This document shows positions 3,557 to 50,597 of a DNA stretch of 64,000 nucleotides, in pieces. Location of the stretch: NCBI GenBank assembly GCA_043812975.1, contig JBDRLP010000025.1:794-64793 (forward strand), written 5' to 3'. The notes under the pieces were generated by a model. It was not told the origin of the DNA, made no database searches, and saw nothing but the letters and a program-made list of their open reading frames with translations. Position 1 is the stretch's first letter. Every line of letters begins with the position of its first letter. The position numbers and the translations under genes were made by a program. Origin of the DNA: Candidatus Iainarchaeum sp. (GTDB taxonomy: Archaea > Iainarchaeota > Iainarchaeia > Iainarchaeales > Iainarchaeaceae).

Positions 3557-4144
3557 TTGATAAGCATTATCTTTATGGCAAAAGGGAAAAAATTACAAAC
3601 AAAAGGGAGGCCTTTATTGGCCGAAAGAAGCCTAAAGACTTTTGCCAGACTTGCCTCAGCGGAAACAGGCTCAGTGAAAAAATTAATGGATCACTTGAGA
3701 GAAAAACTCAGAGACTCGGATTTCTTTCCCGGACTCCCACTTGTGAGGGAAAACTATAGAATAAGGATTCTTGATTTTGAAGGGACAAGATATGCAATCA
3801 AGCGCACGGGTAATTTCAAGGGACACGGCCATAATTTTGAGAAACTAAGGAAAATATTCTTAGTCTACCAGGAGGCAGTAAGGGCAGGAATCATCGAACA
3901 AAAACATTGCAGGCTTTCCTCAATAAAAGTCCTCGGAAGAACCGAAAGGTATTTAGTAATGCAATATGTAGAAGGGCGACCAATTAAAAAACCTTCAAAA
4001 ATTTACACTGAACTGGCAAATAATTTCAAAATACTATTTGAAAAAGGTCTTATAGATGAATTCCCTCAAACCAGCCATGCCATAACCACAAAGGATGCTA
4101 GAACAGGGAAAACCGTGGCCTATCTCCCATATGATTTTATTTGA
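3557..4144 (+). CDS. hypothetical protein, possibly an atypical small kinase-like fold
   Basis: 195 aa; VMQYVEGRPI resembles the kinase hinge region, but no clear catalytic HxD loop. Confidence 0.35.
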   Translation: MISIIFMAKGKKLQTKGRPLLAERSLKTFARLASAETGSVKKLMDHLREKLRDSDFFPGLPLVRENYRIRILDFEGTRYAIKRTGNFKGHGHNFEKLRKIFLVYQEAVRAGIIEQKHCRLSSIKVLGRTERYLVMQYVEGRPIKKPSKIYTELANNFKILFEKGLIDEFPQTSHAITTKDARTGKTVAYLPYDFI

Positions 4145-4218
4145 AAACAGGAATTTTTTTTATTTTTTAAAAAATTCAAATCCTTCAGCTTTTAAGAACA
4201 ACTTTATTTGATTTTTAG

Positions 4219-6057
4219 ATGAAGATTTATTTTCCTTATGAAAACGTGCGGGATGAACAAAAAAAACTCATAAATGATATTGTGAATACCCTGAATTCCA
4301 GCAAAACCCTTTTGGCTAATGCTCCCACAGGATTAGGAAAAACCGTTTCGAGTTTGGCTCCTGCTTTATCATTTGCAATTGAGCACAAAAAGAAAGTGTT
4401 CTTCCTGACTCCGAAAAGTTCTCAGCACGAGATTGCAATGGAAACCTCTAATTTAATGAATGAAAAATTTGGTTTGAAAATCAAAACAGTTGACCTTGTT
4501 GGAAAAAAGAAAATGTGTATACATCCTTTAGTTTCACATGTAAAACAGGGTTTTTACGAAACGTGTTCTGCAATCAAAAAAAAAGAACAATGCAACTTTT
4601 ACATAAACACTAAAGGGAAAACTCTTAAACAAAAAGCAAATGCAAAAAAAAGAAAACAAGGAATAGAAGTTTATGGAAAAACTTATTTTGAAGTAAAAAA
4701 ATCATGCACGACAAGAGAACTATGCCCTTACGAAGTAACTCTTGAAATGATTAAAGAAGCAGATCTTGTAATTGGAGATTATTTTCACATTTTTAATGAA
4801 GATATAAGAGAAAGTATTCTTGGACAGGCTAATATAAAATTAAATGACTGTATTTTGATTATTGATGAAGCCCATAATCTTTCAAAAAGAATAAGGGACA
4901 TGCTTGCAACAACCCTGAAGGTTGATGATATTGAAAAAGCATCCAAAGAAGCAAAGGAAATTAAGGATCAGAAAACTGAAAAAGCTTTGAAAGAAATTGC
5001 AGATGAATTTGTTAAAGTAGTCAGTAAAATTCCTTTGAATGAAAACGAATCTTTAATCGCAGAAGAAGTAACTGAATCATTAAAAGCACTTGCAAAGAAA
5101 AAGCTGGAGCGAATTGAAGAAGCTGCCGGGATTTTCATGAACAAAAACAAAAAAGAAAAATCCTATCTTTTAACAACCGCTGTTTTTTTACACAACCTGA
5201 TTCTGAAAAAGAAACATACTTTACAGGTTGCAGAAATGCAAAGGAATTCAATGAGAATTTCTCTATACCCTCTTGATCCTTCAGAAATAACTGAATCTAT
5301 TTTCAAACAAGCTTATTCAGCAATTTTAATGTCAGGAACATTAAGTCCTTTGAGAATGCATAGTGATGTTTTAGGATTGGAAAATCCTGAACTAAAAGAA
5401 TATTTATCGCCTTTTCCAAAAGAGAACCGGCTCAACATTTTTGTAAACAGAACCACAACAAAATACACTGAAAGGAATTCTGCACAGTATGAGGAAATAG
5501 CAAAAATAATTGAAAAAGTTACCAATGCAACCCCGGGAAACAGCATTGTATTTTTTCCTTCATTTAATGTTATGAATGGTATTTCTCCGAATATTAATAT
5601 TTCAAGAAAAATGCTTGAGCAAAAACAATTAATGTCACAGGATGAAAAATCAAAACTAATTAAGGAATTCAAGGCATTGGCAAGTGGTTTTGGAGGGGTT
5701 CTTCTCGCGGTTTCTGGAGGAAGCATAGCAGAAGGAGTTGATTTTCCAGGGGAAAATTTAAAATGTGCAATTATTGTTGGAATTCCTTTTGAAAGGGTTT
5801 CATTGCAGTCAAAAGCACTGATTGAATTATATGATAAGAAATTCAAGAAAGGATGGGATTACGCTTACAACGGACCAGCAATAAGCAAAGCAGTGCAGGC
5901 AGCAGGAAGAGTTATTCGAAGTGAAAAAGATAAAGGAGCCTGTGTTTTTCTGGATAAACGGTTTTTGGATTTTAAGTACAAACAGTTTTTTCCAAAAGAA
6001 TTTGAATCAATTGTTAATAATGAACCTGAAAAATTGGTTAAGAAATTGTTTGAGTAA
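4219..6057 (+). CDS. XPD/Rad3(DinG)-family FeS helicase
   Basis: Walker A ANAPTGLGKT, DEAH box LIIDEAHNL, four Cys (CIHP, CSAIKKKEQC, CTTRELC) placed as in the XPD FeS domain, and motif VI QAAGRVIRS. Confidence 0.8.
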   Translation: MKIYFPYENVRDEQKKLINDIVNTLNSSKTLLANAPTGLGKTVSSLAPALSFAIEHKKKVFFLTPKSSQHEIAMETSNLMNEKFGLKIKTVDLVGKKKMCIHPLVSHVKQGFYETCSAIKKKEQCNFYINTKGKTLKQKANAKKRKQGIEVYGKTYFEVKKSCTTRELCPYEVTLEMIKEADLVIGDYFHIFNEDIRESILGQANIKLNDCILIIDEAHNLSKRIRDMLATTLKVDDIEKASKEAKEIKDQKTEKALKEIADEFVKVVSKIPLNENESLIAEEVTESLKALAKKKLERIEEAAGIFMNKNKKEKSYLLTTAVFLHNLILKKKHTLQVAEMQRNSMRISLYPLDPSEITESIFKQAYSAILMSGTLSPLRMHSDVLGLENPELKEYLSPFPKENRLNIFVNRTTTKYTERNSAQYEEIAKIIEKVTNATPGNSIVFFPSFNVMNGISPNINISRKMLEQKQLMSQDEKSKLIKEFKALASGFGGVLLAVSGGSIAEGVDFPGENLKCAIIVGIPFERVSLQSKALIELYDKKFKKGWDYAYNGPAISKAVQAAGRVIRSEKDKGACVFLDKRFLDFKYKQFFPKEFESIVNNEPEKLVKKLFE

Positions 6058-12119: not shown

Positions 12120-12394
12120 ACCACTTGGATTTGGAAAAATGGCAAGTCAAACTCAAACCTAAGTGGGACGTTCACTTCAAAAAATTGGATAAAAGCACTC
12201 AGGAAAAAATATTCAAAAAGTTAAAGCAACTCGAACAACCACTACAGGCAAGAGGCCTGCACTCATCAAAATACCAAGTGGAAGAAATAGGTCAGTGCAG
12301 GATTGCTTTTGAAAACAACCAAAAAACAAGAACAAGAGAAGTGCACTTCATAGGAAACCACAAACAATACGAAAAATGGTACAAAGACCAATAA
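12116..12394 (+). CDS. RelE/ParE-superfamily toxin-like protein
   Basis: 92 aa, basic, with C-terminal RIAFE...TREVHFIGNHKQYEKWY as in the RelE/ParE fold; translationally coupled to the upstream small ORF. Confidence 0.5.
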   Translation: MNHLDLEKWQVKLKPKWDVHFKKLDKSTQEKIFKKLKQLEQPLQARGLHSSKYQVEEIGQCRIAFENNQKTRTREVHFIGNHKQYEKWYKDQ

Positions 12395-20866: not shown

Positions 20867-23800
20867 TTATTTAGCAACACCAGTGCTAAGGACGTTTCTG
20901 TCAATACTCCCTACAGTTGCACTAACAAAATCAGCCCAGAGATAAATATTCAGGTCAGCAGTTCCTGTTGTGTAAAGAGCGGTTCCAGCATGAGGTGCTA
21001 AGGTAGTTATATCAACACACCCTGTTGCCGGAGCACCTCCGCAGGTTGCTTCCCATCCATTGTAAACATTAGAACCCTTTAATTCAAGAGTTCCAGGAAG
21101 AGCAGCATTCAAATCAAGAGTAATATTCATATCATTACTTGCAGTACTTTGGTTGTCATAAACAAAGAAAGCTAAACCAGTAGGAGAAGCAGCATCAACC
21201 TGTCCCTGCGCAGCAACCTGAGTTTGATCAGCCAAACCGCTTAAATCAGTGGTTACAAAATAACCTTTTTCACAATCAGCCCCTGCATCAATACTACCTT
21301 CCCCCTCAGTACAACCGCTATTGGGCAAAGCAAGAACAAAAGTAAAATCCTCGGAAAAAGTCTGGATTGTCATTGTTCTATCAGTACCGCTACTAGTGGT
21401 TATAGCAGTCTGAGTTCCATCTCCCCAAAAACGCAATTCAAAAATCCAGTCCTGCGGCGCATTCAAAACCCATGAAACAGCATAGTCCCCTCCGGAACTA
21501 AGAGTCTGATTTTGCGGCTGAGAACCAGAAACAATGTAAAGAGGCGAACCAACATCAGTATTCAAATCCATCCAAGTAGAACAACCAGCACCAACACAAT
21601 ACTGAACATTAGTATCAACCGAACCACAATCATAATTACTGCAAGAAGTTGTTCCGTTAACAAGGAAATTTACGTTCTGGTTTACAGTAACATTATTGTC
21701 CGCAGGAGGATTGCTTATTACAAATGAAAGATCCCCATCAGGCTCCAAAGTAATTGTTCTTTCAGTGCCGACAGTAGTGTTGGCATCTGCCATTGTTCCA
21801 GTTGTGTTGAATCTTAATTCATAAGTCTGTGCAACATTACCTTTCAAAACCCAAGAAACATTAAGGCTTTCACTTGCATTTGCATCAGTAAAAGTTTGTG
21901 GTTGAGAACCAGAAATAAGGTATAGAGGAGAACCAGAATCGGCATTCAAATCCATCCAAGTAGAACAACTAGCACCAATACAATACTGAACATTGGTGTC
22001 AACCGAACCACAGTCAGCATTCCTGCAAGTTGTAGAACCGTCAACCAAAAAGTTATTGCCTAAATACATAGTGTTCGCGTCAGCAGGAGGATTTGTGATT
22101 ACAGGTTCAAGTGTTCCTGCATCAACAACCCAGTCAGCAATTGTTATTGGTGTTGCATCACATTCATTCTCATCATCACAGCAGGTTGCCTCATCACCAG
22201 AATTATTAGTTCCAATATCCTCCCAAGAAGTTGTGTAAGAACAACTAGGAGTTGTATCAGTTCCGTTTGAACCAGCGCAAATTAAATCTGCACCTGATGT
22301 TGTTGAATCACAGGATGCAGCACCAGACCTGCAAACAACTAATCTGAAATTATCTCCTGCATCAGTACAATTTCCAGTGAAAGTAATAGCAGTGCCATGG
22401 TAAACCGAACCATCATTTGTAATTGTGCTTGTAATATCAGGAGCCAAATTTGGCTGGGTGTAGTAAATGTAAGGGTCAAAAGTCGCTCCTAATTCTCCAG
22501 TATCATAAAAATTAACTTCACATTCTTGTTTCCTGTCAGCTCTTGTGGTATCGTCTAAAAAGAACCTCAAAGTAAGGTAATCTCTTACTGCGGTAACATT
22601 GTTATTCCACGCAGTTGTAACAGTGGCATTAATGTCCCCAGCAATTGTATCACAGTCAAACCAATTTCCTACCACTGCCTCAAATATACTAGAATCAAAA
22701 TCAGTATCATCAATTGCAGCTCCAAGAGTCGTTATGCTGTCCAAATCAAATGTTCCAGGTAATTCTTTTGTTACTGTTGTCTGATAAGCCAAAGCAAACT
22801 CAGCAGTACTAACGCTGCCTATACCAGTAATGTCAAACTCGAGGACCGCCCTACTGTGATAGTCTGAGCCCGAGTTGTCATATCCTGCTTCAATATCTGC
22901 TGAATTAACCGAACTTGGAGAACCGTCTACAAGGCGTACTACTGTGCCGTCTACATCCGCTGTGCCTTCATTAATTGAAACCGAAGGATCCAATTCAATC
23001 AAAGAACCGTTTCCAAGAGTTTGGTAAATAAAAGTTTGGTTTCCATTAACATCAAGACTTAGTTCTGAATCGTAAAAAGAACCATTATTGGTTGGATCTG
23101 CAAAACTTATAGTGGCAACTGAATTATTTGAGAGGTCTGTTAAGAAAATTATTTTTTGGTTAGATTCATCATCCTCAGGAGGAACAAATAAACTTGCCTC
23201 AAAATCCCCAGAAGTTGCATGCTTCAGCCTTAAAATATTGTTTTGAGAAGAATAATTCCAGTCCTCAACCTCCAAACCCCATTTCAAACTGCTTCTTTTT
23301 AATTTATAATAAATGTGAACATCTGCACCACCATAATTGAAACTCCAAGAAAGCCTTCCCTTTTCAAAACCAACATCATTCAGGACGTTTTCTTTTTCTT
23401 TGTAATCAGCAGGAAAAGGATTTTCAGTGAAATTCACGAAATCAACAACCTCGTTTGCAGGGGTTATTTCCTCAATTGCTATAGGGGTTACTCCTAATAT
23501 TTGGCTGGTGTTGTTGCTGTAAATCCTCGTGCTTCCAAGGTTCTCCTTGAAATCCACAATCAAACACTCATTCTCGAGCCTGTGGGCATAATCATTATCA
23601 TTTATTTGCGAGTAAAAAGTTTCTCCGCATTCCGAATCAGTGTAAAGTCTTTTTCCTTCAGAACCAAAGTCAAATGTATCAGTAATTGGCTCGTCCTTCA
23701 ATGGTTTTTTGTTCTTCTTAATTTCCTTTGTTCTTCTAATATTCAACAAATCATCCGAATCCTCGATTGTATCATTATAATCATCAATTACTTCATCAGG

Positions 23801-25603
23801 AATTTTTTTCTTTGAAAAAGCAAAAGCAACAGGACTATAATTAAAAGTTGCTTCATTTGTGAAATTTAAATCAACCCAAGAGCCATTACATTCTTGACCT
23901 GCAAAATTCCAGCTGCTGCACTCAAAGAGGTGCTCAAAGTTTTTTGGTAAATTAAAAATTGCAGTCGAGCCTGAAAACTGCGGGTTAACTTTTAAGGCAA
24001 CTAGGGATAAGTAACTTGGATTGATTTTTGCAAGGGTGTTACTGTCAAGAATCTCACTAACCTCAATCAGGATTGTGTTTGAATCCAAAACAACATTACT
24101 CAAAGAAATTGATCCGAGAGTTTGGTCGGAGAAAAGTATTTCAGCATCATAAGTCCCCGACAAAACACTAACACTTTTGCCAGAGCCTGCCAAAGAAGCA
24201 TTGGAATCAAACAATGACAAATTTGATTCAGTATTTGACGCTACAATTGTTAGTAAGGGCAATTCTTGAGGCAGTTCTTCTGGTTCTTCAGCAGGAGGTT
24301 CTTCAATAATTTCTTCGGGAATTTTCTGCGCAAAACCCATTGCATTGCCGGAAGCAAATATTTTTGATGATATTACATTTCCATTTCGTGTGCCGCCAAA
24401 TAATTCCCACGAACCACTGCAGTTTTGTGATTCAAAATCCCAGTAATTGCACTCATAAACAAATCCAGCATCATAAGGAACAGTAACATCAAAATCAGTA
24501 GTGGAAAAACCAACATTGGGTTTTAGGGAAATGATTTTGACCCACTGCAAATTAGCATCAGGAACAGCAAAATCTAGAGAAATGCTCTCATCAACCTCAA
24601 TTAAAGTTACATCAGAATCAATTACGAGTTCATTAATAGTAATAGTGTTGAGTTGTGTTTCCAGAAAAGTCAGGTTTGCGTTGTAAGTTCCTTCATCAAG
24701 TTGCACTTGCTCGGTTGACGAGTCAACCAAATTACCATTAAGATCAAAAACTGATAAAGCAGCAGAAACATTTGAAGGAACAACAGTAAACAAAGAAGAA
24801 TCATCAATGATTACAAGCGATGGTCCAATTGTATTATTCGTATCTTCAGAAGGCTGTTCCTCGACTAACTCGTTTTCAATTGTAATGGAAATTAATTCAG
24901 AATAACAGGCAACCTCGGTGCAGGCATTTGCCTCTAAATCATAAACGCCGTTGTCAAATTCAGCAGTATTTATTTCAGCAGTTATAGTATTCTCTGAAAG
25001 AGTTCCATCAATTTGAGTTCCATTGATTTCAAACCACTGCGAAGTTATTTCCCCAAAGTTCTGCAGAGAAACAATAATCACATCAAGGCCGCTCAGAACC
25101 TGAAATTCTATAGGCGAAACAAAAATTATTTCAGGAATCAGTTCAATAAGGTCATCAATAATTCCTCCGCCAGAACCAGAATCTTCTGGTGGTTCAATCA
25201 CAACATTTGTATCAGGTGGTTCTTCTTCAGGCAGTGGTTCTGCAACAACATTTTGATCAGGAACTTCTTCAGGAACAGGTTCTGGCTCAGGTTCAGGAAG
25301 GGGTTCTTCCTCAGCAGAAGGTTCTTCAGGAGGAACTTCCACAGGAACAGGTTCCTCTTCAATAACAGGAGGCTCTTCCACTAGTGGCTCCTCTATTGGA
25401 GGCTCTTCCACTGGTGGTTCAAGATCTGGCTCGGAAACAGGTTCTGGTTCTGGAATAGGTTCAGGATCTGGGTCTATGAGAGGAGGTTCAGGAGCAGGAG
25501 GCTCTGGGTCTGGAGCTGGTTCTTCTGGAGGACTTGTGTCCTCTGAGAAAACAAATCCAAACAAAAGCAAAACCAAAACTAAAGCCGTCAGAAATCTTTT
25601 CAT
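20867..25603 (-). CDS. giant secreted surface protein / putative adhesin
   Basis: 1578 aa; signal peptide; about 120-aa Pro/Glu-rich PEPEP linker; internally duplicated ~125-aa modules (TNVQYC[IV]GA.CSTWMDLN...SGSQPQ); Cys-rich C-terminal half. Confidence 0.7.
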   Translation of the reverse strand: MKRFLTALVLVLLLFGFVFSEDTSPPEEPAPDPEPPAPEPPLIDPDPEPIPEPEPVSEPDLEPPVEEPPIEEPLVEEPPVIEEEPVPVEVPPEEPSAEEEPLPEPEPEPVPEEVPDQNVVAEPLPEEEPPDTNVVIEPPEDSGSGGGIIDDLIELIPEIIFVSPIEFQVLSGLDVIIVSLQNFGEITSQWFEINGTQIDGTLSENTITAEINTAEFDNGVYDLEANACTEVACYSELISITIENELVEEQPSEDTNNTIGPSLVIIDDSSLFTVVPSNVSAALSVFDLNGNLVDSSTEQVQLDEGTYNANLTFLETQLNTITINELVIDSDVTLIEVDESISLDFAVPDANLQWVKIISLKPNVGFSTTDFDVTVPYDAGFVYECNYWDFESQNCSGSWELFGGTRNGNVISSKIFASGNAMGFAQKIPEEIIEEPPAEEPEELPQELPLLTIVASNTESNLSLFDSNASLAGSGKSVSVLSGTYDAEILFSDQTLGSISLSNVVLDSNTILIEVSEILDSNTLAKINPSYLSLVALKVNPQFSGSTAIFNLPKNFEHLFECSSWNFAGQECNGSWVDLNFTNEATFNYSPVAFAFSKKKIPDEVIDDYNDTIEDSDDLLNIRRTKEIKKNKKPLKDEPITDTFDFGSEGKRLYTDSECGETFYSQINDNDYAHRLENECLIVDFKENLGSTRIYSNNTSQILGVTPIAIEEITPANEVVDFVNFTENPFPADYKEKENVLNDVGFEKGRLSWSFNYGGADVHIYYKLKRSSLKWGLEVEDWNYSSQNNILRLKHATSGDFEASLFVPPEDDESNQKIIFLTDLSNNSVATISFADPTNNGSFYDSELSLDVNGNQTFIYQTLGNGSLIELDPSVSINEGTADVDGTVVRLVDGSPSSVNSADIEAGYDNSGSDYHSRAVLEFDITGIGSVSTAEFALAYQTTVTKELPGTFDLDSITTLGAAIDDTDFDSSIFEAVVGNWFDCDTIAGDINATVTTAWNNNVTAVRDYLTLRFFLDDTTRADRKQECEVNFYDTGELGATFDPYIYYTQPNLAPDITSTITNDGSVYHGTAITFTGNCTDAGDNFRLVVCRSGAASCDSTTSGADLICAGSNGTDTTPSCSYTTSWEDIGTNNSGDEATCCDDENECDATPITIADWVVDAGTLEPVITNPPADANTMYLGNNFLVDGSTTCRNADCGSVDTNVQYCIGASCSTWMDLNADSGSPLYLISGSQPQTFTDANASESLNVSWVLKGNVAQTYELRFNTTGTMADANTTVGTERTITLEPDGDLSFVISNPPADNNVTVNQNVNFLVNGTTSCSNYDCGSVDTNVQYCVGAGCSTWMDLNTDVGSPLYIVSGSQPQNQTLSSGGDYAVSWVLNAPQDWIFELRFWGDGTQTAITTSSGTDRTMTIQTFSEDFTFVLALPNSGCTEGEGSIDAGADCEKGYFVTTDLSGLADQTQVAAQGQVDAASPTGLAFFVYDNQSTASNDMNITLDLNAALPGTLELKGSNVYNGWEATCGGAPATGCVDITTLAPHAGTALYTTGTADLNIYLWADFVSATVGSIDRNVLSTGVAK
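21500..22150. repeat. tandem intragenic DNA repeat (2 units of about 380 bp) in the giant surface protein gene
   Basis: Near-identical stretches ttcaaatccatccaagtagaacaac.agcaccaa.acaatactgaacatt begin near 21561 and 21945. Confidence 0.6.
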
Positions 25604-25649: not shown

Positions 25650-25907
25650 TCAGCCGTATTTCAGTTTTAAAAAAGCTATTCCTAAAACAATTAAGAAGGT
25701 TAAAACATTTGCAATAATTATAGGAATTTCATTTAACATTAATCCATAAACAATCCATACTAAAACCCCTGTACCAAGAACTAAAAGAAACCCCCTTGAA
25801 ATATCTTTTGTGGATTTTGTACGCCATGCTTTTATGAACTGCGGAAGATTTGCAATAGTTGTTAATGTTCCTGCAAGAATGCCAATGTAAAAAATTAAAT
25901 CAGGCAT
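25650..25907 (-). CDS. SemiSWEET / PQ-loop family transporter
   Basis: 85 aa, 3 TM. ANLPQFIKAWRTKSTKDISRGF...VYG...PIIIANVLT matches the bacterial SemiSWEET pattern. Confidence 0.7.
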   Translation of the reverse strand: MPDLIFYIGILAGTLTTIANLPQFIKAWRTKSTKDISRGFLLVLGTGVLVWIVYGLMLNEIPIIIANVLTFLIVLGIAFLKLKYG

Positions 25908-25942
25908 AAACTACCATTACTAATGTTTATTTTTAACAATAT

Positions 25943-26665
25943 CTAAATTTGTGTGATTTTGTTCATACAAATAGTTATTGTGTTTCTGAGTTTCTGGATT
26001 GGTTCTTTTTTTAGTTCAAAAGTTTCCTCATTCATGTACACTGATTTGTTTACTTCTAATTCAAGAGCATGCACATTTGGTTTTTGAGTAACGTAATGGA
26101 TTATTTTGGCTCTTTCTCCTGAATAAGGATTGTTTCTTTCAGCATGATACCCTTGCTTTTGAAATTCCTCCTCAAAAATTTTCAAAAGATTTTCAGGAAC
26201 AGTTCCTGGGCTTCTTCCTGTTGCAAAACAAATTTCAGGCCTTTCCTTTCCGGCATCACCAGAAACAAGGCTTCCTTTAGAATCCATTGAATGGCCGTCT
26301 AAAACAAACAATTGTTTTTCTCTTTGTAAAAAAGAATCAAGTTTTTTGTAAAAAGGATCATAATATTTTACTAAACGGTTTTCGATTACATCAGGGGTAA
26401 GTTCATGCTTCAGAACTATTTCCCCGCTCCATGTTTCTGTAATAATAACTCCCTGACCTTCGCGTAAATCATTTCTTTCACGGTTAATATCAACAACAAA
26501 TCTTGAAGCAGTTGCCTTTAACACCTGAAAATTTTCCAAATCAAAAATTGATTCAGTTCCGAAATCAAGATGTTTATTCATGTGCTTTGGACTTAGGTTA
26601 AACTCGTGATGAAATTCTTTCGGGATAAATATGGAACCATGAGGAATAGTAATCAGTGTTTCCAT
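25943..26665 (-). CDS. N-formylglutamate amidohydrolase (FGase) family zinc hydrolase
   Basis: ITIPHGSIFIP, VVDINRERND and VLDGHSMD match the IPHxG / DxNR / DxHS signature of the FGase family. Confidence 0.6.
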   Translation of the reverse strand: METLITIPHGSIFIPKEFHHEFNLSPKHMNKHLDFGTESIFDLENFQVLKATASRFVVDINRERNDLREGQGVIITETWSGEIVLKHELTPDVIENRLVKYYDPFYKKLDSFLQREKQLFVLDGHSMDSKGSLVSGDAGKERPEICFATGRSPGTVPENLLKIFEEEFQKQGYHAERNNPYSGERAKIIHYVTQKPNVHALELEVNKSVYMNEETFELKKEPIQKLRNTITICMNKITQI

Positions 26666-26668
26666 TTC

Positions 26669-27589
26669 TTAAACACCTTTGGGTTTCAATTTTTCTTTAT
26701 TTTCTTTTTTCCCTCTATTTTCTTTATTTTCAAGCCCTTTTTTATACAAAAAATTAAGTATTGCTTTTGCGATTTTGTTTCCAAAAAATTTCTGTATCAT
26801 ACCGGGAGTAAAATTTATTTCAACAAGCATCGGACCGTTTTTAGTCATTAAAAAATCAACACTGCATACATCTGCGCCAATAAGTTCTGCTGCACGCAAA
26901 GCCATTTCCTTTACATCCTCATCAAGCTCAATTTTTTCAGCCGATCCTCCTGTAGAAACATTAGCACGCCACTCGCCTGCCCCTCCTTTTCTTTTGATTC
27001 CCATAACTTCTTTCCCAATTACTAATGCACGGTAATCAGTTGCTTCTGCGGGCATATATTCCTGTGTGGAAATAAACTCATCAAAGACCCGCAGGGTCTC
27101 AAGAATTGGTTTAAACTCTTCCTCAGAATTAACAAGCATTACGCCTTTTCCTCCAAAACCACTAAGAAGTTTCACTACAACAGGAAAACCTGTTCTTTTT
27201 ACAATATTTGCTGAAACCTCAGGAGTAACAGAAATTGAAGAATCCGGAACAGGAATTCCGATAGAGCTGACAACTTTAATAGTGTAAAACTTGTGATTAC
27301 AAACCTGAAATGCTTCAGCAGTACTCTGAACGTAAACTCCGGAGTTTTCAAGAATATCAAGAAGCATTTCAGCAAGGACAAAGTCTTCTCCAAATGCCCT
27401 TACCCAAACAACATCAAATTCTGAAAGGTCACGGTTTTTGTAAAATATTTTAGTCTCACCATTTTCACAGGAAATCCTGATTTTATTAAGCGAAACAAAA
27501 AGCATTGATTCAAATTTTTTCTGGGCTTCTTCTATTATGAGAGGCTGGACATCTACTCCTGATTTTCCGCTTATAATGCATATTTTCAT
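26669..27589 (-). CDS. RimK-like ATP-grasp alpha-L-glutamate-type ligase
   Basis: VVVKLLSGFGGKGV, EYMP..DYRALVIG, NVSTGG, ADVCSVDFLM and VEINFTPG are typical RimK/LysX/CofF motifs. Confidence 0.8.
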   Translation of the reverse strand: MKICIISGKSGVDVQPLIIEEAQKKFESMLFVSLNKIRISCENGETKIFYKNRDLSEFDVVWVRAFGEDFVLAEMLLDILENSGVYVQSTAEAFQVCNHKFYTIKVVSSIGIPVPDSSISVTPEVSANIVKRTGFPVVVKLLSGFGGKGVMLVNSEEEFKPILETLRVFDEFISTQEYMPAEATDYRALVIGKEVMGIKRKGGAGEWRANVSTGGSAEKIELDEDVKEMALRAAELIGADVCSVDFLMTKNGPMLVEINFTPGMIQKFFGNKIAKAILNFLYKKGLENKENRGKKENKEKLKPKGV

Positions 27590-28449
27590 TATTTTCCCCT
27601 CATTTTTTCTTCATAGTGAGCTACAACTTTTTCATACATATTCTGGCTTGAAGCAGCATTGAACATTGCAAAATCAATTTTATTTCGAACTCCTATTACT
27701 TTTCCATTAATCATTTTTACAACGCCAATATCCATTCCGGAAACTTTTGCTGCTTTAATAGCCATTTCTCTGTCATCATCAGAAAGTTTTGTGGTTAATG
27801 GTTTTTTTGAATGGGAAAGTTCCTTTTCAACCCACTTTCTTTTAATCGTAAAAACATCATCGCCAATAACAAGGCTCTGGTCAACATCCCCTTCTAAATA
27901 TTCCTGAATTGTTATTGCATCAATGTTCACAGAAATACTTCTTATAAAAGATTTTAACGAACGTTCAGATTCAATAAGAACAGAATTGGTTTTTTTCAGA
28001 CCGGAAAAAGTTTTAACGATAAGAGGATATGAAAAAGTTTTGAGGCTGGCGTCAATTGTTTCCTTATCAGCAATAATATCTGTCTTGGAAATATTTACTT
28101 TTTTTGAGTTAAGTGAAACATAAAGAAAGGGCTTGTTTGAAAGTAAATAATAGGAATTTGGTTTTAGGTTACAGTAAATTCCGGAATCCACCAGTTCACT
28201 TATAAATGGTTCTGCAAAAACAGTGAACTCAACAGGAAGACTAAGGAAAACAGAATCATATTCAGAAAAAGCTTTCCCATCACGGAAAATACTTGAAGAG
28301 TTCTTTTCAACCAGAACACCAATGCTACCTATTTCAACAAATTCCGAATCGATTTTCTTTGAATTAAAAGCCTTTATCAGTGCCTCTATATCCGAAGTTT
28401 TTTTCTCAGCAATTAATGCTACATTCATAACAACAAACCACTTAAGCAA
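27589..28449 (-). CDS. divergent ATP-grasp-like paralog, possibly a non-catalytic partner
   Basis: Same length and layout as the RimK fold (LIVKTFSGLKK.. ; EYLEGDVDQSLVIGD; VVKMINGKVIGV) but the Gly-rich ATP loop is degenerate. 1-nt overlap with the downstream ligase. Confidence 0.5.
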   Translation of the reverse strand: MLKWFVVMNVALIAEKKTSDIEALIKAFNSKKIDSEFVEIGSIGVLVEKNSSSIFRDGKAFSEYDSVFLSLPVEFTVFAEPFISELVDSGIYCNLKPNSYYLLSNKPFLYVSLNSKKVNISKTDIIADKETIDASLKTFSYPLIVKTFSGLKKTNSVLIESERSLKSFIRSISVNIDAITIQEYLEGDVDQSLVIGDDVFTIKRKWVEKELSHSKKPLTTKLSDDDREMAIKAAKVSGMDIGVVKMINGKVIGVRNKIDFAMFNAASSQNMYEKVVAHYEEKMRGK

Positions 28450-30024
28450 TTATTTTTTGCTTGTTTTTGATTTTGTACTTTTTTCTTTGGATTTTTCAGA
28501 TTCAGTTTTTTCCTTTTCCTGTTTCTGCTTTGAAGAAGTTAAATCCGGCTTCCAAATATGCTTTACTTTTTCTTCTTTAATCTTTGGAGCAAGATGTTCT
28601 GAAATAATCTCATTAATCATATTTCTTTGCCTGAACTGTCTTTTCAAATATCTCTCAAAAGATTTTGAAAGGTTTTTATAAGAAGCAACATCCCCATAAA
28701 GAAGACCTTCATTTAAGCGCCAGAATGCAGAGGTTCCTTTTTTGGCAAAAACAAAATAACCCCTTGAAATATCATAATCATCCATTGCATCCTCAAGAAG
28801 CTGGTGATTTACCAAATAAACCCCTGCTGTTTCGTTACTTGGATCCATTACTACAAGTTCCTCTCCCTCAACACCAACACATAAAACATAGTGGCCGGAC
28901 CTGCTTTCTTTTTCAGGGAAAATCACTGGTTTCTTGTACCATAAAATAATCATTGCTCCTTCCGCAATCCACGCCTTTATTTCCTGAGCAAGATCAAAAA
29001 TTTCATCAAACCTTATTAATTGACCTTTAACCTCTGAATTAGTGAACTTCTTCACAGCATTAATAAGGTCTTCCGGTTCCGTTCCTCCGGGAATCTTGGT
29101 TTTTGATTCCTTAGCCAGTTCTTCCTGAGTAATAGTATAACCAAAAAAATCAAGCATCATAACAGCTGAAGCAGGGCCACAGTAACTTGGCAATTGAGGC
29201 ATAAAGTTTTTCATCAACGCTTCAATCTTTGTGATGTTACTTCTAACCCTTTTCACAAGAAGTTCTTTTGTGATAATAACTTTGTTTGGAATAATATGAT
29301 TGTAACCGGAACTTGTTTCAATAATAACGCCGTGATTTGTAACGCTAATTACTTCACCTTCACTGTCCTGAAGTTTAACTCTTTGACCCGGCTTGAGAAT
29401 GTTTTTTTCAACATACCTTGCAAGCAGAGCATTTGAAATATAATCCTTGAAAGAATAAGCGATTAATGCTCCTGAGAAAAACATCAAAGTGAAAACAGTG
29501 CCTGCAATTATCGTATCAAAGAAAGGGACTGGCCGCGCGTAATAATTCAGGGTAATGCTTAGTAAAACGAGATAAAGGAAAAGTTTCAGGACAAAGAAAA
29601 CAGTGTTTATTATGTTTGATGAAACACCAAACTCGTGTAAGTAATCAAGTCTTCCTATTCGGGTGAAAAAAGTTTTCAGAATATCAACAATCAGATTTAT
29701 TACAATGTAACCAAGCATCAGAATAAGAATAATCACAAGTGCAGCAGGAATAATATCCCAGACCCTGACTAAAACATCCTTTGCAAACTCAACCTTCAAA
29801 ACATCAAGTGCAACTATTGTAAAGAAAACAAAAATCATCAGTTCAATAAGCCTTGTAAGTGATTTTACTGATGCAACCGAAACCAAGTTTAGTTTGTCAT
29901 TAAAAGCAAGTATTGCCAAAGCAATAATCTTTGCAGAAATTACTCCTGATATAAGAATTCCTAATGCTAATACTGTTTCATTAGCAACTGCATCCTGTAA
30001 TATATCCAAACCAAATGGTAACAT
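28450..30024 (-). CDS. MscS-family mechanosensitive channel fused to a C-terminal C39-like papain-fold peptidase domain and a Lys/Ser/Glu-rich tail
   Basis: Four or more TM segments, then the MscS beta-domain KPGQRVKL.SEGEVISVTNHGVIIETSSGYNHIIPNKVII. After that come QLPSYCGPASAVMMLDFFG (Gln/Cys of C39), SGHYVLCVGV (His) and MDPSNE (Asp). Confidence 0.7.
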   Translation of the reverse strand: MLPFGLDILQDAVANETVLALGILISGVISAKIIALAILAFNDKLNLVSVASVKSLTRLIELMIFVFFTIVALDVLKVEFAKDVLVRVWDIIPAALVIILILMLGYIVINLIVDILKTFFTRIGRLDYLHEFGVSSNIINTVFFVLKLFLYLVLLSITLNYYARPVPFFDTIIAGTVFTLMFFSGALIAYSFKDYISNALLARYVEKNILKPGQRVKLQDSEGEVISVTNHGVIIETSSGYNHIIPNKVIITKELLVKRVRSNITKIEALMKNFMPQLPSYCGPASAVMMLDFFGYTITQEELAKESKTKIPGGTEPEDLINAVKKFTNSEVKGQLIRFDEIFDLAQEIKAWIAEGAMIILWYKKPVIFPEKESRSGHYVLCVGVEGEELVVMDPSNETAGVYLVNHQLLEDAMDDYDISRGYFVFAKKGTSAFWRLNEGLLYGDVASYKNLSKSFERYLKRQFRQRNMINEIISEHLAPKIKEEKVKHIWKPDLTSSKQKQEKEKTESEKSKEKSTKSKTSKK

Positions 30025-30173
30025 ACCAATCCCTCAATACCCTCAATGTAAGATAGTATATATTATAATTATTCATTTAAATAACTTGGTAATTAGGAAA
30101 AAACACAAAACCTGAAAAAATAAAACATTGGGTTTTTTGGGCACTAAGAGGCCAGAAACAGGGCTAACACAAC

Positions 30174-30182
30174 TTTTATAAA
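30174..30182 (+). promoter_or_regulatory. putative archaeal TATA box for guaB (leaderless transcript)
   Basis: ttttataaa is centred about 26 nt upstream of the guaB ATG at 30204. Confidence 0.35.
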
Positions 30183-30203
30183 CCATTTAAGCAGTATTAT
30201 TAT

Positions 30204-31715: not shown

Positions 31716-33335
31716 ATGAGTGAATTTACAAGCGATGAAGAAAAGATTCTGAAACCGTTTTTTACAAATCTGGATAAGGATATTTTTGTACTCAGGAATC
31801 TTCCAGAAGTTGTTAAAGGAGCATTATTCTCAAGATACAGCAGAACCTCCAAGAGCATTCGAAGGCTACTTTTAGATGAATTCATTAATGATGAAAAAAT
31901 GGGTTTCAAGGAAATAGTGGCTTACTCAGAAGCAATGGGTGAAGATCAGGTAATAGCAACCAAAAAAGCAGAGGAATTTTATGACAGGGTGCTTGTTGGC
32001 TACGGAGATGATTCTGTTGCCGAGCTTGGTGGTGCACACATAGCGTGCGAAAACATAAGCAACATTGCTTCCAAAATACTCGAGGATTCAAGAATAGGAA
32101 TTTCCCCGCTGGAAAAAAGCACAAGATATGTTTATTATGATAAAAAAGTTGATGGAAAGTACAGGTATTATTTGGAACCTGCTTTAATGAAATCAAAACA
32201 CCAAGACTTATACATAAATACTTGTGATTCTTTATTTGATACTTACGCAAAATTATTAGAACCAACAAAAAAGTATTTGAATGAAAAGTTTCCTCAGGGA
32301 AAGGAAAGTGACAGGGCTTATAATTCAAGCATTAAAGCAAAAGCCTGTGATATTCTGCGCGGGTTATTGCCTGCATCAACAACAACCAATGTAGGAATGT
32401 TCGGAAACGGAAGAAGTTTTGAATATTTGATTACAAGAATGCATTCAAATGAATTACAGGAATCTAGGAGTATTGCAAAAGAAATGCACACTGAGCTTTT
32501 GAAATATATTCCTTCTTTTGTGAAAAGAGCAACAGGAAAATATGGAGACCCTACAATAAAGTTTTTAAGCGAAACAAGAAAGGATATGCAGGAACTGGCA
32601 GACAAAACTTTTGAAGGAACTGAACCTGAAGCAAAAGAAGAAGTTGTGCTTACAAATTATGACAAGGACGCAGGGGAAAATATTTGCGCTGCTGCGTTGT
32701 ATCCTTTTACAACTTTAAGTTTTGAACAAGTAAAGGAAAAAGTAAAAGCAATGAGCAAAGAAGAAAGAATTAATGCGATTAATACTTATCAGAAGAAAAG
32801 ACAGAACAGAAGGCATAAACCTCACAGGGGTTTTGAGCATGCGTACTATGAATTTGATTTAATGTGCAATTACGCTTCTTATAGGGATTTACACAGACAC
32901 AGGGTTTTAACCCAGCAGAGACAGGATTTAACAGTGAAACACGGGTTTGATTTGCCTCCTGATGCAGAAGAAATCGGTTTTGCAGATGAATTCAAGGAAC
33001 AAATGGACTTAGCAAAAGATGCTTATTGGAAAATTTACCCTGATTTGCGGAAGGAAGCTCAGTATGTTGTTCCATTTGCCTGCAAAATCAGGTGGAGCAA
33101 TTACCTTAATTTAAGAGAACTTTATCATCTAGTAGAATTGAGAAGTACAATTCACGGCCATCCTGATTACAGGAGAATTGTTTTGAAAATGCTTGAAGAA
33201 GTAAAAAAAGTTCAACCAGAGTTAGTTGAATACCTGAAGTTTGTTGATTACAGAGATGCAGGATTAGAAAGACTTGAATCTGAGAAAAATATTGATAAAA
33301 AAATGCAGGAGGTTGAGAAAAAATATGAAAAGTAA
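31716..33335 (+). CDS. thyX: flavin-dependent thymidylate synthase, long form
   Basis: FGNGRSFEYLITRMHS and YRDLHRHR resemble the ThyX NARS...R...H and RHR motifs. At 539 aa it is about twice the canonical length, suggesting a duplicated pseudo-dimer. Confidence 0.65.
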   Translation: MSEFTSDEEKILKPFFTNLDKDIFVLRNLPEVVKGALFSRYSRTSKSIRRLLLDEFINDEKMGFKEIVAYSEAMGEDQVIATKKAEEFYDRVLVGYGDDSVAELGGAHIACENISNIASKILEDSRIGISPLEKSTRYVYYDKKVDGKYRYYLEPALMKSKHQDLYINTCDSLFDTYAKLLEPTKKYLNEKFPQGKESDRAYNSSIKAKACDILRGLLPASTTTNVGMFGNGRSFEYLITRMHSNELQESRSIAKEMHTELLKYIPSFVKRATGKYGDPTIKFLSETRKDMQELADKTFEGTEPEAKEEVVLTNYDKDAGENICAAALYPFTTLSFEQVKEKVKAMSKEERINAINTYQKKRQNRRHKPHRGFEHAYYEFDLMCNYASYRDLHRHRVLTQQRQDLTVKHGFDLPPDAEEIGFADEFKEQMDLAKDAYWKIYPDLRKEAQYVVPFACKIRWSNYLNLRELYHLVELRSTIHGHPDYRRIVLKMLEEVKKVQPELVEYLKFVDYRDAGLERLESEKNIDKKMQEVEKKYEK

Positions 33336-50430: not shown

Positions 50431-50597
50431 CGCGGGGAACGGGATTCGAACCCGTGCGTCCAGAAGGACAACAGCTCGCCGCACAATTCCCAAAATTCAA
50501 AGCTCCTTGCTTTTTCTTTTGGTACAGCTTTTCTTTTTCACCGAAAAAGAAAAGGTGTTTAGCAGGCTGCCGCGTTAGACCACTCCGCCACCCCCGC
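50431..50597 (-). tRNA. tRNA-Ser (anticodon GCU) with an 83-nt intron at canonical position 37/38
   Basis: Hand-folded: exon 1 (50597..50560) GCGGGGG-TG-GCGG..CGC-G-GCAGC-CTGCTA. Exon 2 (50476..50431) is A-GCTGT, a long variable arm TGTCC-TTCT-GGAC, T-arm ACGGG-TTCGAAT-CCCGT, and acceptor TCCCCGC-G. The mature length is 84 nt. Confidence 0.75.
50477..50559 (-). other. tRNA-Ser intron carrying the conserved GGTACAGC / poly-purine element
   Basis: Boundaries inferred from anticodon-stem pairing (+/-2 nt). Contains a perfect 11-bp hairpin UUUUCUUUUUC/GAAAAAGAAAA and CUGUACC. Confidence 0.6.

Follow-up and report, generated by a model that had tools for sequence, protein, structure and literature searches.

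What joins a protein that fuses an MscS-type channel to a C39-type cysteine peptidase with two RimK-like ATP-grasp ligases encoded behind it on the same strand? These genes lie in a stretch of 64 kb of Candidatus Iainarchaeum sp. (hereafter the window), where an earlier note had described a unit of five genes. All five ORFs are present on the minus strand, with gaps of 0, -1, 3 and 35 nt in order from the ORF of 524 codons, and all five domain assignments were borne out by profile searches (Pfam and NCBIfam). The genes and the region upstream of them are the following:

25650-25907, minus strand: SemiSWEET, 85 aa (NF037968)
25943-26665, minus strand: FGase-family zinc amidohydrolase, 240 aa (PF05013)
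26669-27589, minus strand: RimK-family alpha-L-amino-acid (glutamate-type) ligase, predicted active, 306 aa (TIGR00768)
27589-28449, minus strand: RimK-like ATP-grasp paralogue, predicted to be catalytically dead (pseudoenzyme), 286 aa from TTG (PF08443)
28450-30024, minus strand: MscS-like/C39-like fusion, 524 aa, first gene of the module (MS_channel_2nd and Peptidase_C39_2/C39, Pfam)
30025-30203, no strand: divergent intergenic region of 179 nt between the module and guaB (IMPDH), likely promoter region as read from the sequence

For the ORF of 286 codons the ATG at 28428 is the probable start, because the homologues measure 277-281 aa and their alignment with it begins at residue 8. The product would then have 279 aa and follow a gap of 21 nt. 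The intergenic region, which likely holds the promoter of the module, contains an AT-rich 'TTTAAAT...TTATAATATATA' some 25-45 nt 5' of the ATG of the fusion gene.

We retrieved 50 homologues of the fusion protein in one search and 64 representatives (E <= 1e-30) in another, and all those with an organism name were from DPANN archaea. The loci were compared in Iainarchaeia/Diapherotrites, Nanohaloarchaea and one Woesearchaeota MAG, giving 27 distinct loci (including that of the window) in which the identity of the C39 protein ranges from 31 to 90%. The order C39 protein, degenerate RimK, active-type RimK, all on the same strand, was found in 24 of them, and the stop and start codons often overlap or abut. 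Since this order recurs down to 31% identity, the arrangement is not a product of chance. From lineage to lineage the genes on either side are replaced entirely while the adjacency, orientation and order of the three genes persist, and much of the surrounding synteny involves housekeeping genes (IMPDH, TyrRS, CysRS and HSP20). The conserved core consists of these three genes. The pairing of the fusion with ATP-grasp genes, which had been proposed as a check in other archaeal genomes, was thus recovered in DPANN, but not as a unit of five genes. FGase, previously counted as a member of the unit, is the fourth gene in only 8 of the 27 loci, directly after the active-type RimK (the window, L006, L007, L023, L033, L035, L036 and L037). 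These form one subclade, in which FGase is an accessory member of the module. No SemiSWEET was found in any other of the loci compared; in the closest relative, L036, a DUF2061 gene takes its place. SemiSWEET is an adjacent gene, possibly co-transcribed, outside the conserved module.

The fusion protein comprises the following parts, all encoded on the minus strand:

29398-30024, minus strand: membrane module, residues 1-209 (five long helices in the AF2 model; hhalign, Foldseek)
29251-29397, minus strand: MscS beta-domain, residues 210-258 (PF00924; 'LKPGQRV...GEV..V....V.....G....IPNK')
28735-29241, minus strand: C39-like papain-fold cysteine peptidase domain, residues 262-430 (Peptidase_C39_2)
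29194-29196, 29179-29181, 28891-28893 and 28843-28845, minus strand: catalytic codons of Q277, C282, H378 and D394, respectively
28540-28734, minus strand: helical C-terminal extension, residues 431-495 (conserved block in the 28-member alignment)
28450-28539, minus strand: variable Lys/Glu/Ser-rich tail, residues 496-524 and stop codon (unconserved)

The helices of the AF2 model span residues 12-45, 50-75, 79-123, 136-162 and 167-209. The last one is a pore helix of the MscS TM3 type, and its N198 is nearly invariant in the alignment of 28 family members. Comparison with E. coli MscS by hhalign (93.3% probability) matched residues 95-260 of the fusion to MscS 26-175, i.e. to the transmembrane helices and the beta-domain, and Foldseek matched the membrane module to the MscS structures 7dlu and 6vyk (E about 5e-6). 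MS_channel_2nd (PF00924) was detected at residues 209-253 (22.9 bits, cut-off 20.2), and G213, G223 and P246 of the beta-domain are invariant or nearly so in the same alignment. A pore-lining TM3 helix followed by a beta-domain with conserved motifs places the protein in the MscS family (TC 1.A.23). It shares with E. coli MscS and YnaI the TM1-TM3 arrangement, the conserved TM3b Asn and the 'IPN' motif of the beta-domain, but has two extra N-terminal helices and an enzyme domain where they have the vestibule. The profile search of the 524-aa protein gave no match to MS_channel_3rd, and the alignment ends at MscS residue 175: the alpha-beta domain and the C-terminal barrel of the vestibule are gone, and in the sequence and the models the C39-like domain stands instead. 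Truncated MscS forms without a full cytoplasmic cage exist, e.g. TcMscS of Trypanosoma cruzi (PMC8282336). Read by eye, the pore helix of the fusion does not show the Gly/Ala packing pattern known from E. coli MscS. In the homologue search the membrane half came closest to mini-MscS proteins of about 275 aa; next to one of them are encoded a canonical MscS and proteins that look like compatible-solute enzymes. Inter-domain confidence of the full-length AF2 model is low (pTM 0.46).

The match to Peptidase_C39_2 (Pfam) covers residues 275-395 (E = 1e-12), and the AF2 models place the beginning of the domain at about residue 262. It combines a papain-like fold with the Gln oxyanion residue and the Cys/His/Asp(Asn) triad of the C39/C39_2 peptidases (clan CA). 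These residues had been judged intact by eye, and the alignment agrees: Q277, C282 and H378 are each present in at least 90% of the 28 members and D394 in all 28, while P0044 is a member seen without both the catalytic Cys and His. Judged by these residues, the domain is predicted to be a catalytically intact peptidase. Its cytoplasmic location, also advanced before, is supported by the topology, which places it after the MscS-type module. The extension that follows ends in an invariant W491-x-P493 motif (28546-28554), disordered in the full-length model (pLDDT < 50) and a short beta-strand in the domain-only model (pLDDT about 80). The earlier note had passed over this conserved block of 65 residues. 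Several family members terminate 2-4 residues past W-x-P, and there is no conserved terminal acidic residue. In L030-32, from one genome, a soluble C39 paralogue immediately precedes the ligase pair; hence it is the peptidase that is tightly coupled to the ligases. P0104 is a soluble C39 paralogue without the W-x-P motif, and the ligase pair is still alongside.

The two ligases differ in their state of preservation. The 306-aa protein matches TIGR00768 (RimK family) with 163.5 bits (cut-off 143.4), and its best PDB match is the RimK structure 7qyr (E = 2.7e-32). Compared with RimK structures it keeps 'WRANVSTGG' and 'VDFL...VEINFTPG', and its ATP-grasp fold has the nucleotide, Mg and substrate motifs of the RimK family intact, so that it is predicted to be a catalytically competent member. 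It falls under every equivalog cut-off (NCBIfam) for MptN, LysX (123.6 bits, cut-off 275.6), S6 ligase, CofF and GshB; a role as S6--L-glutamate ligase sensu stricto (NF007764) was rejected at 114.9 bits against 331. RimK-family enzymes characteristically extend Glu-terminated acceptors, such as S6, F420, methanopterin and LysW, and the best NCBIfam matches of the 306-aa ligase are all of this kind. Glutamate is most likely the amino acid that it uses, as judged solely from family membership. The 286-aa paralogue retains the likeness at the level of the fold and matches RimK weakly (PF08443, 38 bits). When it is aligned to E. coli RimK and to the active-type ligases encoded next to it, both the Gly-rich loop and the Arg of 'DxR' are missing, 'FRSNxxxGG' and 'ExN' have each been lost by a 4-residue deletion, and Lys stands in place of the Mg-binding Asp. 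One ligase had been said to have a degenerate ATP loop. Degenerate it is, but the loss goes beyond one weak loop to nearly all catalytic motifs, in every aligned locus. The homologue search found no such paralogue outside the clade and context of the module, and the protein is best described as a predicted conserved pseudoenzyme.

The accessory genes add further enzymes. The 240-aa protein belongs to the FGase family (PF05013, E = 3.6e-37, 129.1 bits, cut-off 28.9), with 'PHGS', 'DINR' and 'GHSM' aligned to FGase structure 2q7s. HutG (TIGR02017) was rejected for it (55.5 bits, cut-off 278.75), and we saw none of the hut genes in the window. The 85-aa protein is a three-helix PQ-loop/MtN3 SemiSWEET (NF037968, 97.5 bits, cut-off 80). 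Other loci have instead M29, M20 (in four related loci) or M17 peptidases, a third RimK-like ligase, or GCS2 ligases; a YheCD-like enzyme is among the additional ligases. A small zinc-ribbon protein, with neither LysW similarity nor an acidic C-terminus, is encoded in four loci. That the ligase pair recurs in 24 of 27 loci with changing metallopeptidases (FGase, M20, M29 and M17) makes the general idea of a system that ligates and trims, put forward earlier, a plausible one.

The suspicion that the MscS-C39 fusion is new has held: we found no description of it in the literature searched, to which it appears new, and databases label it only "C39 family peptidase". The closest analogues are RimK/RimB and the RloABC system of Pseudomonas. 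In RimK/RimB (E. coli and Pseudomonas) a RimK-family ligase likewise has as its neighbour the gene of a peptidase, which undoes or restricts what the ligase makes, but that peptidase is an aspartic, retropepsin-like enzyme and not a papain-fold Cys enzyme fused to a membrane channel. The module also differs in its near-constant degenerate ligase paralogue, in the absence of the S6 substrate and in the low S6-ligase score (115 against 331 bits). Systems made of a 7TM-inactive-transglutaminase, a RimK-like ATP-grasp and a protease were reportedly predicted by Iyer et al. in 2009. RloABC of Pseudomonas aeruginosa, which is of this type, comprises a membrane papain-fold protein, a RimK-like ATP-grasp and a poly-Glu-cleaving protease, and has a phenotype in the tolerance of hypo-osmotic stress (PMC12239564). 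It has the same three-part logic of an integral membrane protein bearing a papain fold, a cytoplasmic RimK-like ATP-grasp and a peptidase, and its hypo-osmotic link fits the MscS-type partner found here. However, in RloB the domain is an inactive transglutaminase, periplasmic and on seven TM helices, whereas here the domain is of C39 type, predicted active, cytoplasmic and on an MscS-type module. RloABC comes from Proteobacteria and has a retropepsin; the DPANN module has none, but has the degenerate ligase and metallopeptidases. Profile searches gave no matches to Transglut_i_TM, 7TM_transglut or retropepsin, and the RimK-like ATP-grasp is the one component in common with RloABC-type systems. 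The LysX/ArgX-LysW-LysK pathway likewise combines a RimK-family ligase with a metallopeptidase that releases the product, and four related loci here have M20 and four loci a zinc-ribbon protein. However, LysZ/Y/J are absent here, the zinc-ribbon is not LysW-like and the ligase falls under the LysX cut-off.

We tentatively favour the reading that these genes form a DPANN-specific, membrane-tethered peptide ligase/peptidase module, although we hold it with somewhat less than even confidence. At the expense of ATP, the active-type ligase would attach alpha-linked amino acids (glutamate most likely) to a carboxyl terminus and build short peptides of oligo-Glu type, which would be free or sit at the tail of a protein or peptide. 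The degenerate RimK would be a partner without catalytic activity, a scaffold or an adaptor for the substrate, and may anchor the ligase to the channel protein. Where the channel, presumably a heptamer, opens into the cytoplasm, the Cys peptidase would cleave these peptides or transfer them. Metallopeptidases that differ by lineage (FGase in the window; M20, M29 or M17 in other loci) would complete the breakdown to amino acids, and extra ligases (third RimK, GCS2, YheCD-like) may diversify the product. In sum, glutamate would pass in a regulated way between a free form, which is osmotically active, and a peptide pool that is osmotically quiet, and this exchange would be coupled to a valve that senses tension. 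In favour of this reading, the structural neighbours of the C39 domain include enzymes that act on non-ribosomal gamma/epsilon-linked peptides, namely Alr0975 on glutathione and PeiR on pseudomurein. Against it, we came across no acceptor protein whose acidic C-terminus is conserved, and the most divergent member, L002, stands without ligases. In L030 the ligases are linked to a C39 gene that lacks the membrane module, hence the osmotic link may be secondary.

Reversible glutamylation of a protein at its C-terminus or side chains, as done by RimK/RimB on S6 or by TTLL/CCP on tubulin, seems unlikely to us. The target could be the Lys/Glu-rich tail of the channel protein, with C39 and FGase as erasers and the degenerate RimK as targeting subunit. 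The fold of FGase is carboxypeptidase-like, which would suit an eraser, and the K/E/S-rich tails and the conserved W-x-P lie within a flexible segment. Glutamylation of protein tails is also the best-known RimK activity (PMC12239564). However, the tails are variable, members that stop just after W-x-P lack a conserved terminal acidic residue, and P0104 retains the ligase pair without the motif. To our knowledge, bacterial S6 is absent from archaea.

It is similarly doubtful that the module matures and releases a ribosomal peptide in the manner of PCAT, with the C39 domain trimming the leader, possibly after modification by the ligases, and the channel exporting the product for the interaction of these episymbiotic archaea with their hosts. 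In PCAT/AMS proteins the C39 domain is N-terminal, on an ATP-driven ABC exporter; here it is C-terminal on an MscS-type channel, and such pores are passive and non-selective, without energy coupling. No ABC transporter was found in the module neighbourhoods examined, nor any conserved small ORF or double-glycine precursor gene near the module: the recurrent short ORFs are antisense shadows of conserved genes, plus the zinc-ribbon protein. Furthermore, the ligases are of RimK and not of graspetide type (profile search; PMC8939145).

A pathway for thiol peptides of the kind of gamma-Glu-Cys, glutathione or phytochelatin, in which GCS2 makes the dipeptide, a RimK/GshB-like enzyme extends it and a phytochelatin-synthase-like domain deglycinates or transpeptidates, is less probable still. 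Likeness to phytochelatin synthase and Alr0975 (the C83 papain-like gamma-glutamylcysteine transpeptidase) is significant only structurally, with PF05023 at 13.9 bits on the 524-aa protein against a cut-off of 24.9. The ligase scores 163 bits with the RimK family and only 73 with glutathione synthase; GCS2 and other thiol-peptide genes are absent from the window, and GCS2 was unseen in the examined DNA of the other seven FGase-type loci. Finally, mere synteny, with the channel-peptidase working alone (e.g. in membrane-protein quality control) and the ligases in an unrelated cofactor or amino-acid pathway, would fit the housekeeping neighbours and the most divergent member, L002 (L002/L021), which stands without ligases, but is very improbable given the strict adjacency, orientation and order across 24 loci with wholly different flanks and a degenerate ligase found in the module context only.

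The membrane-tethered ligase/peptidase module also has a bolder form, which we regard as improbable: a mechano-enzyme in which a heptameric MscS-type channel would carry a vestibule of seven active Cys peptidase domains, tension would gate the hydrolysis or transpeptidation and the release of oligoglutamate made by the ATP-grasp enzyme, and the degenerate RimK would dock the ligase via W-x-P. If true, this would be a previously unknown millisecond conversion of an osmotically silent polymer to an osmolyte, or its venting. In the form that we favour, the interconversion of free glutamate and peptide pool would help very small cells to keep their osmotic balance and turgor steady.

The five consecutive genes take these positions in the ORF listing of the window:

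28450-30024, minus strand: 524-aa ORF, the MscS-C39 fusion
27589-28449, minus strand: 286-aa ORF, listed with a TTG start, the degenerate ("dead") RimK paralogue
26669-27589, minus strand: 306-aa ORF, the "live" RimK-family ligase
25943-26665, minus strand: 240-aa ORF, the FGase
25650-25907, minus strand: 85-aa ORF, the SemiSWEET

Five near-abutting genes had been described here and all of them are present, with junctions of 0, -1, 3 and 35 nt. The TTG start of the dead RimK gene (28428-28449, minus strand) is probably wrong. Its homologues are 277-281 aa long and align from residue 8, which argues for a true start at the ATG at 28428, giving a protein of 279 aa. Upstream of the fusion gene is a divergent region of 179 nt, which is AT-rich and shared with guaB. 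Downstream of the five genes, a 1578-aa ORF (20867-25603, minus strand) begins 46 nt past the SemiSWEET stop. Its product starts with what resembles a signal peptide and carries Pro/Glu-rich repeats as well as two internal repeats of about 150 aa ('NVQYC.GA.CSTWMDLN'). It gave no significant Pfam match and is probably a surface protein. Elsewhere in the window, a 539-aa protein (31716-33335, plus strand) has two matches to Thy1 (ThyX) and is about twice as long as the Thy1 profile, which has 191 positions. The archaeal character of the window is seen in an intron-containing tRNA of archaeal type (50431-50597, minus strand; Rfam match of 167 nt, 42.3 bits), which has no ARAGORN call.

Profile searches bore out the domain calls for all five proteins. 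The 524-aa protein matches MS_channel_2nd at residues 209-253 (22.9 bits, cut-off 20.2), Peptidase_C39_2 at residues 275-395 (E = 1e-12) and Peptidase_C39 (E = 2.8e-7). The 306-aa protein belongs to the RimK family TIGR00768 (163.5 bits, cut-off 143.4), and the 286-aa protein gives a weak RimK match (38 bits). The FGase matches PF05013 (E = 3.6e-37) and the SemiSWEET NF037968 (97.5 bits, cut-off 80). The parts are recognisable as members of known families (MscS TM3 and beta-domain, C39_2, RimK family, FGase, SemiSWEET), and at the equivalog level they fail every test (S6 ligase, MptN, LysX, HutG, phytochelatin synthase). The live ligase is under all equivalog cut-offs, including those of CofF and GshB. 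A role of the FGase in histidine utilisation was rejected, its HutG score being 55.5 bits against a cut-off of 278.75.

To place these genes in context, we gathered 27 distinct loci by genome scan, contig look-ups, tblastn and ORF clustering. They come from Iainarchaeia/Diapherotrites, Nanohaloarchaea/Nanohalobium, one Woesearchaeota MAG and one MAG labelled Methanosarcinales. The genes for the C39 protein, the dead RimK and the live RimK follow each other in this order on one strand in 24 of the loci, often with abutting or overlapping codons. In two others the contig ends within the first ligase gene, and one divergent locus (L002, 33% identity) has the C39 protein alone. The FGase gene lies 3' of the live ligase in 8 of the 27 (the window, L006, L007, L023, L033, L035, L036 and L037; FGase identity 42-91%), and the SemiSWEET gene occurs in the window only. 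The proposed five-gene unit thus shrinks to a core of three genes, with the FGase as a subclade-specific fourth; the SemiSWEET is a bystander. In the closest relative, L036, the place past the FGase gene is taken by a 72-aa DUF2061 membrane protein (4122-4340).

Around this core, the loci have interchangeable sets of accessory peptide hydrolases and additional amide ligases. The former are peptidases of families M29 (8 loci), M20 (4) and M17 (1). The latter include a third, apparently active RimK-like gene (10 loci), a YheCD-like ATP-grasp (2) and GCS2 carboxylate-amine ligases (9), which lie within the operon in Nanohaloarchaea. The 64-kb window has no M29, M20 or GCS2 gene. Four loci (L001, at 12130-12378, L010, L011 and L012) encode, directly 3' of the third RimK-like gene, a zinc-ribbon protein of 82-93 aa with a CxxC...CxxC motif and a Lys/Glu-rich tail. 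This succession brings to mind the small carrier LysW. We rejected a LysW-like carrier: the protein has no PDB or LysW similarity and is missing from the window. Three further loci (L030, at 4732-5442, L031 and L032) encode a soluble C39 paralogue of 236 aa whose Q/C/H/D residues are intact. It directly precedes the dead/live RimK pair, and the membrane-fused C39 gene lies two genes upstream. Therefore, it is the peptidase domain that is tightly coupled to the ligase pair, and the membrane module can be separated from them. A Kef-like gene (Na_H_Exchanger and TrkA_N) follows the ligase pair of these loci after 5 nt.

We aligned the dead RimK with E. coli RimK and with its active neighbour across 16 loci. 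Every dead RimK aligned lacks the Gly-rich loop and the Arg of "DxR", has lost "FRSNxxxGG" and "ExN" (each through a 4-residue deletion) and carries a conserved Lys in place of the Mg-binding Asp. The live family retains all of these elements. The earlier note had given one of the two ligases a degenerate ATP loop; the motif losses in this one go further than that at every locus aligned, and by these motifs it is a conserved pseudoenzyme. Its homologues, in a word-index-limited search, were DPANN proteins of the same clade only. At one locus (L016, 7109-7534) the ORF has just 141 aa and tblastn covers residues 210-283 only; this copy appears truncated or frameshifted.

The 524-aa protein joins an MscS-type membrane module to an intact C39-like peptidase domain that is predicted to be cytoplasmic. 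An AlphaFold2 model built on a 28-sequence alignment (mean pLDDT 79.7; pTM 0.46 for the full-length monomer) has five long helices (12-45, 50-75, 79-123, 136-162 and 167-209), a small beta-domain (215-258) and an alpha/beta papain-like domain (262-428), followed by a helical extension, a low-confidence segment (484-497) and a terminal helix. The family profile aligns with residues 26-175 of E. coli MscS (TM1-TM3 and beta-domain; 93.3% probability), and the match ends at the point where MscS continues into its alpha-beta domain; Foldseek matched MscS structures at E of about 5e-6. The positively charged loops fit, by eye, an N-out, C-in topology, which would place the peptidase in the cytoplasm. 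As had been claimed, the catalytic residues are intact: each of Q277, C282 and H378 occurs in at least 90% of the 28 family members aligned, and D394 is invariant among them. One member, P0044, was seen without both Cys and His. Behind the peptidase core, the same alignment has a conserved extension of about 65 residues that ends in an invariant W491-x-P493. The variable K/E/S tail begins only past this motif, and several members terminate 2-4 residues after it. The segment (residues 487-493; 28540-28560, minus strand) is disordered in the full-length model and forms a beta-strand before P493 in a domain-only model (pLDDT about 80). Its possible roles are those of a pseudo-substrate, a self-cleavage site or a docking motif.

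When 1.84 billion representatives were searched exhaustively with a profile, 64 of this family came up at E <= 1e-30, and most of these are full-length fusions. The next-best matches were 'mini-MscS' proteins of about 270-290 aa, a large family which matches the membrane and beta-domain half only and is the nearest relative of that half. The gene of one of them (P0113; locus L025, 5001-5822) adjoins genes for a canonical MscS, an inositol-phosphatase and a TreT-like glycosyltransferase.

Pairs of a RimK-like ligase and a membrane-bound papain-fold protein occur widely. Of these, only RloABC of Pseudomonas aeruginosa has been studied, which reportedly influences tolerance of osmotic stress, resistance to antibiotics and the formation of biofilms. 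It consists of a membrane papain-fold protein, a RimK-like ATP-grasp and a poly-Glu-cleaving protease, and its mutants are sensitive to hypo-osmotic stress, a phenotype that is suppressed when the membrane protein or the ligase is lost (PMC12239564). RimK/RimB and RloABC are the nearest working likeness to the DPANN module, which is a member of neither. Unlike in RloABC, its papain-fold domain is catalytically intact, is predicted to be cytoplasmic and is fused to a recognisable MscS-type channel.

The ligate-and-trim system suggested in the earlier note stands as the best reading, with the three-gene core as the unit and interchangeable peptide hydrolases beside its ligases. The live ligase would add alpha-linked amino acids, most likely Glu, to a carboxyl terminus; to our knowledge, every RimK-family enzyme with an established function elongates an acceptor of the Glu type. 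The dead paralogue would serve as scaffold or adaptor, the Cys peptidase would cleave or transfer the ligase product at the channel mouth, and FGase, M20, M29 or M17 enzymes would complete its degradation. MscS-type channels have a known role in glutamate efflux. Together with the MscS module itself, the mini-MscS context and the RloABC analogy, this leads us to propose, tentatively, that ligation and trimming of Glu-type peptides at the channel is tied to osmotic homeostasis.

Peptide export as in PCATs, where a C39 peptidase is fused to an ABC exporter, is unlikely. The architecture is alike, with a channel replacing the exporter, but MscS pores are passive, no conserved precursor ORF was found, and the module is not a PCAT. 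A RiPP or bacteriocin cluster was rejected for the same lack of a precursor, the conserved short ORFs being antisense shadows of coding genes. Glutamylation of protein tails, with the C39 proteins themselves as candidates, is improbable, since their tails are variable. Thiol-peptide metabolism has the GCS2 genes and the phytochelatin-synthase-like fold in its favour, but the window lacks GCS2 and the ligase is far nearer to RimK than to GshB, which makes it quite improbable. Mere synteny of the genes is very improbable; their order persists at C39-protein identities as low as 31%. Known cofactor and amino-acid pathways (MptN, CofF, LysX/ArgX, GshB, cyanophycin, NAGGN) were rejected because the ligase scores well under their equivalog cut-offs and their partner genes are missing, and anti-phage defence because PADLOC matched none of the five proteins.

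Source databases name the fusion protein "C39 family peptidase" or "hypothetical". Full-text literature searches found no description of an MscS-C39 fusion or of its pairing with RimK-like genes, in line with the earlier view that it is apparently undescribed. A survey of papain-like peptidases noted only a tendency of C39_2 genes to neighbour transporters and a fusion of the related DUF3335 to GNAT-type peptide ligases (PMC10318531). The module belongs with the RimK-type ligase/peptidase systems that have a membrane-bound papain-fold partner, as a stripped-down version with a domain architecture that we did not find described. It offers a concrete and testable connection of membrane mechanics with the ligation and trimming of peptides. 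The MscS superfamily would gain an enzymatic output domain, and the dead RimK clearly exemplifies a conserved pseudoenzyme partner of the ATP-grasp type. For the very small, host-dependent cells of DPANN archaea, this is among the few lineage-specific multi-gene systems that may bear on osmotic survival or amino-acid economy.
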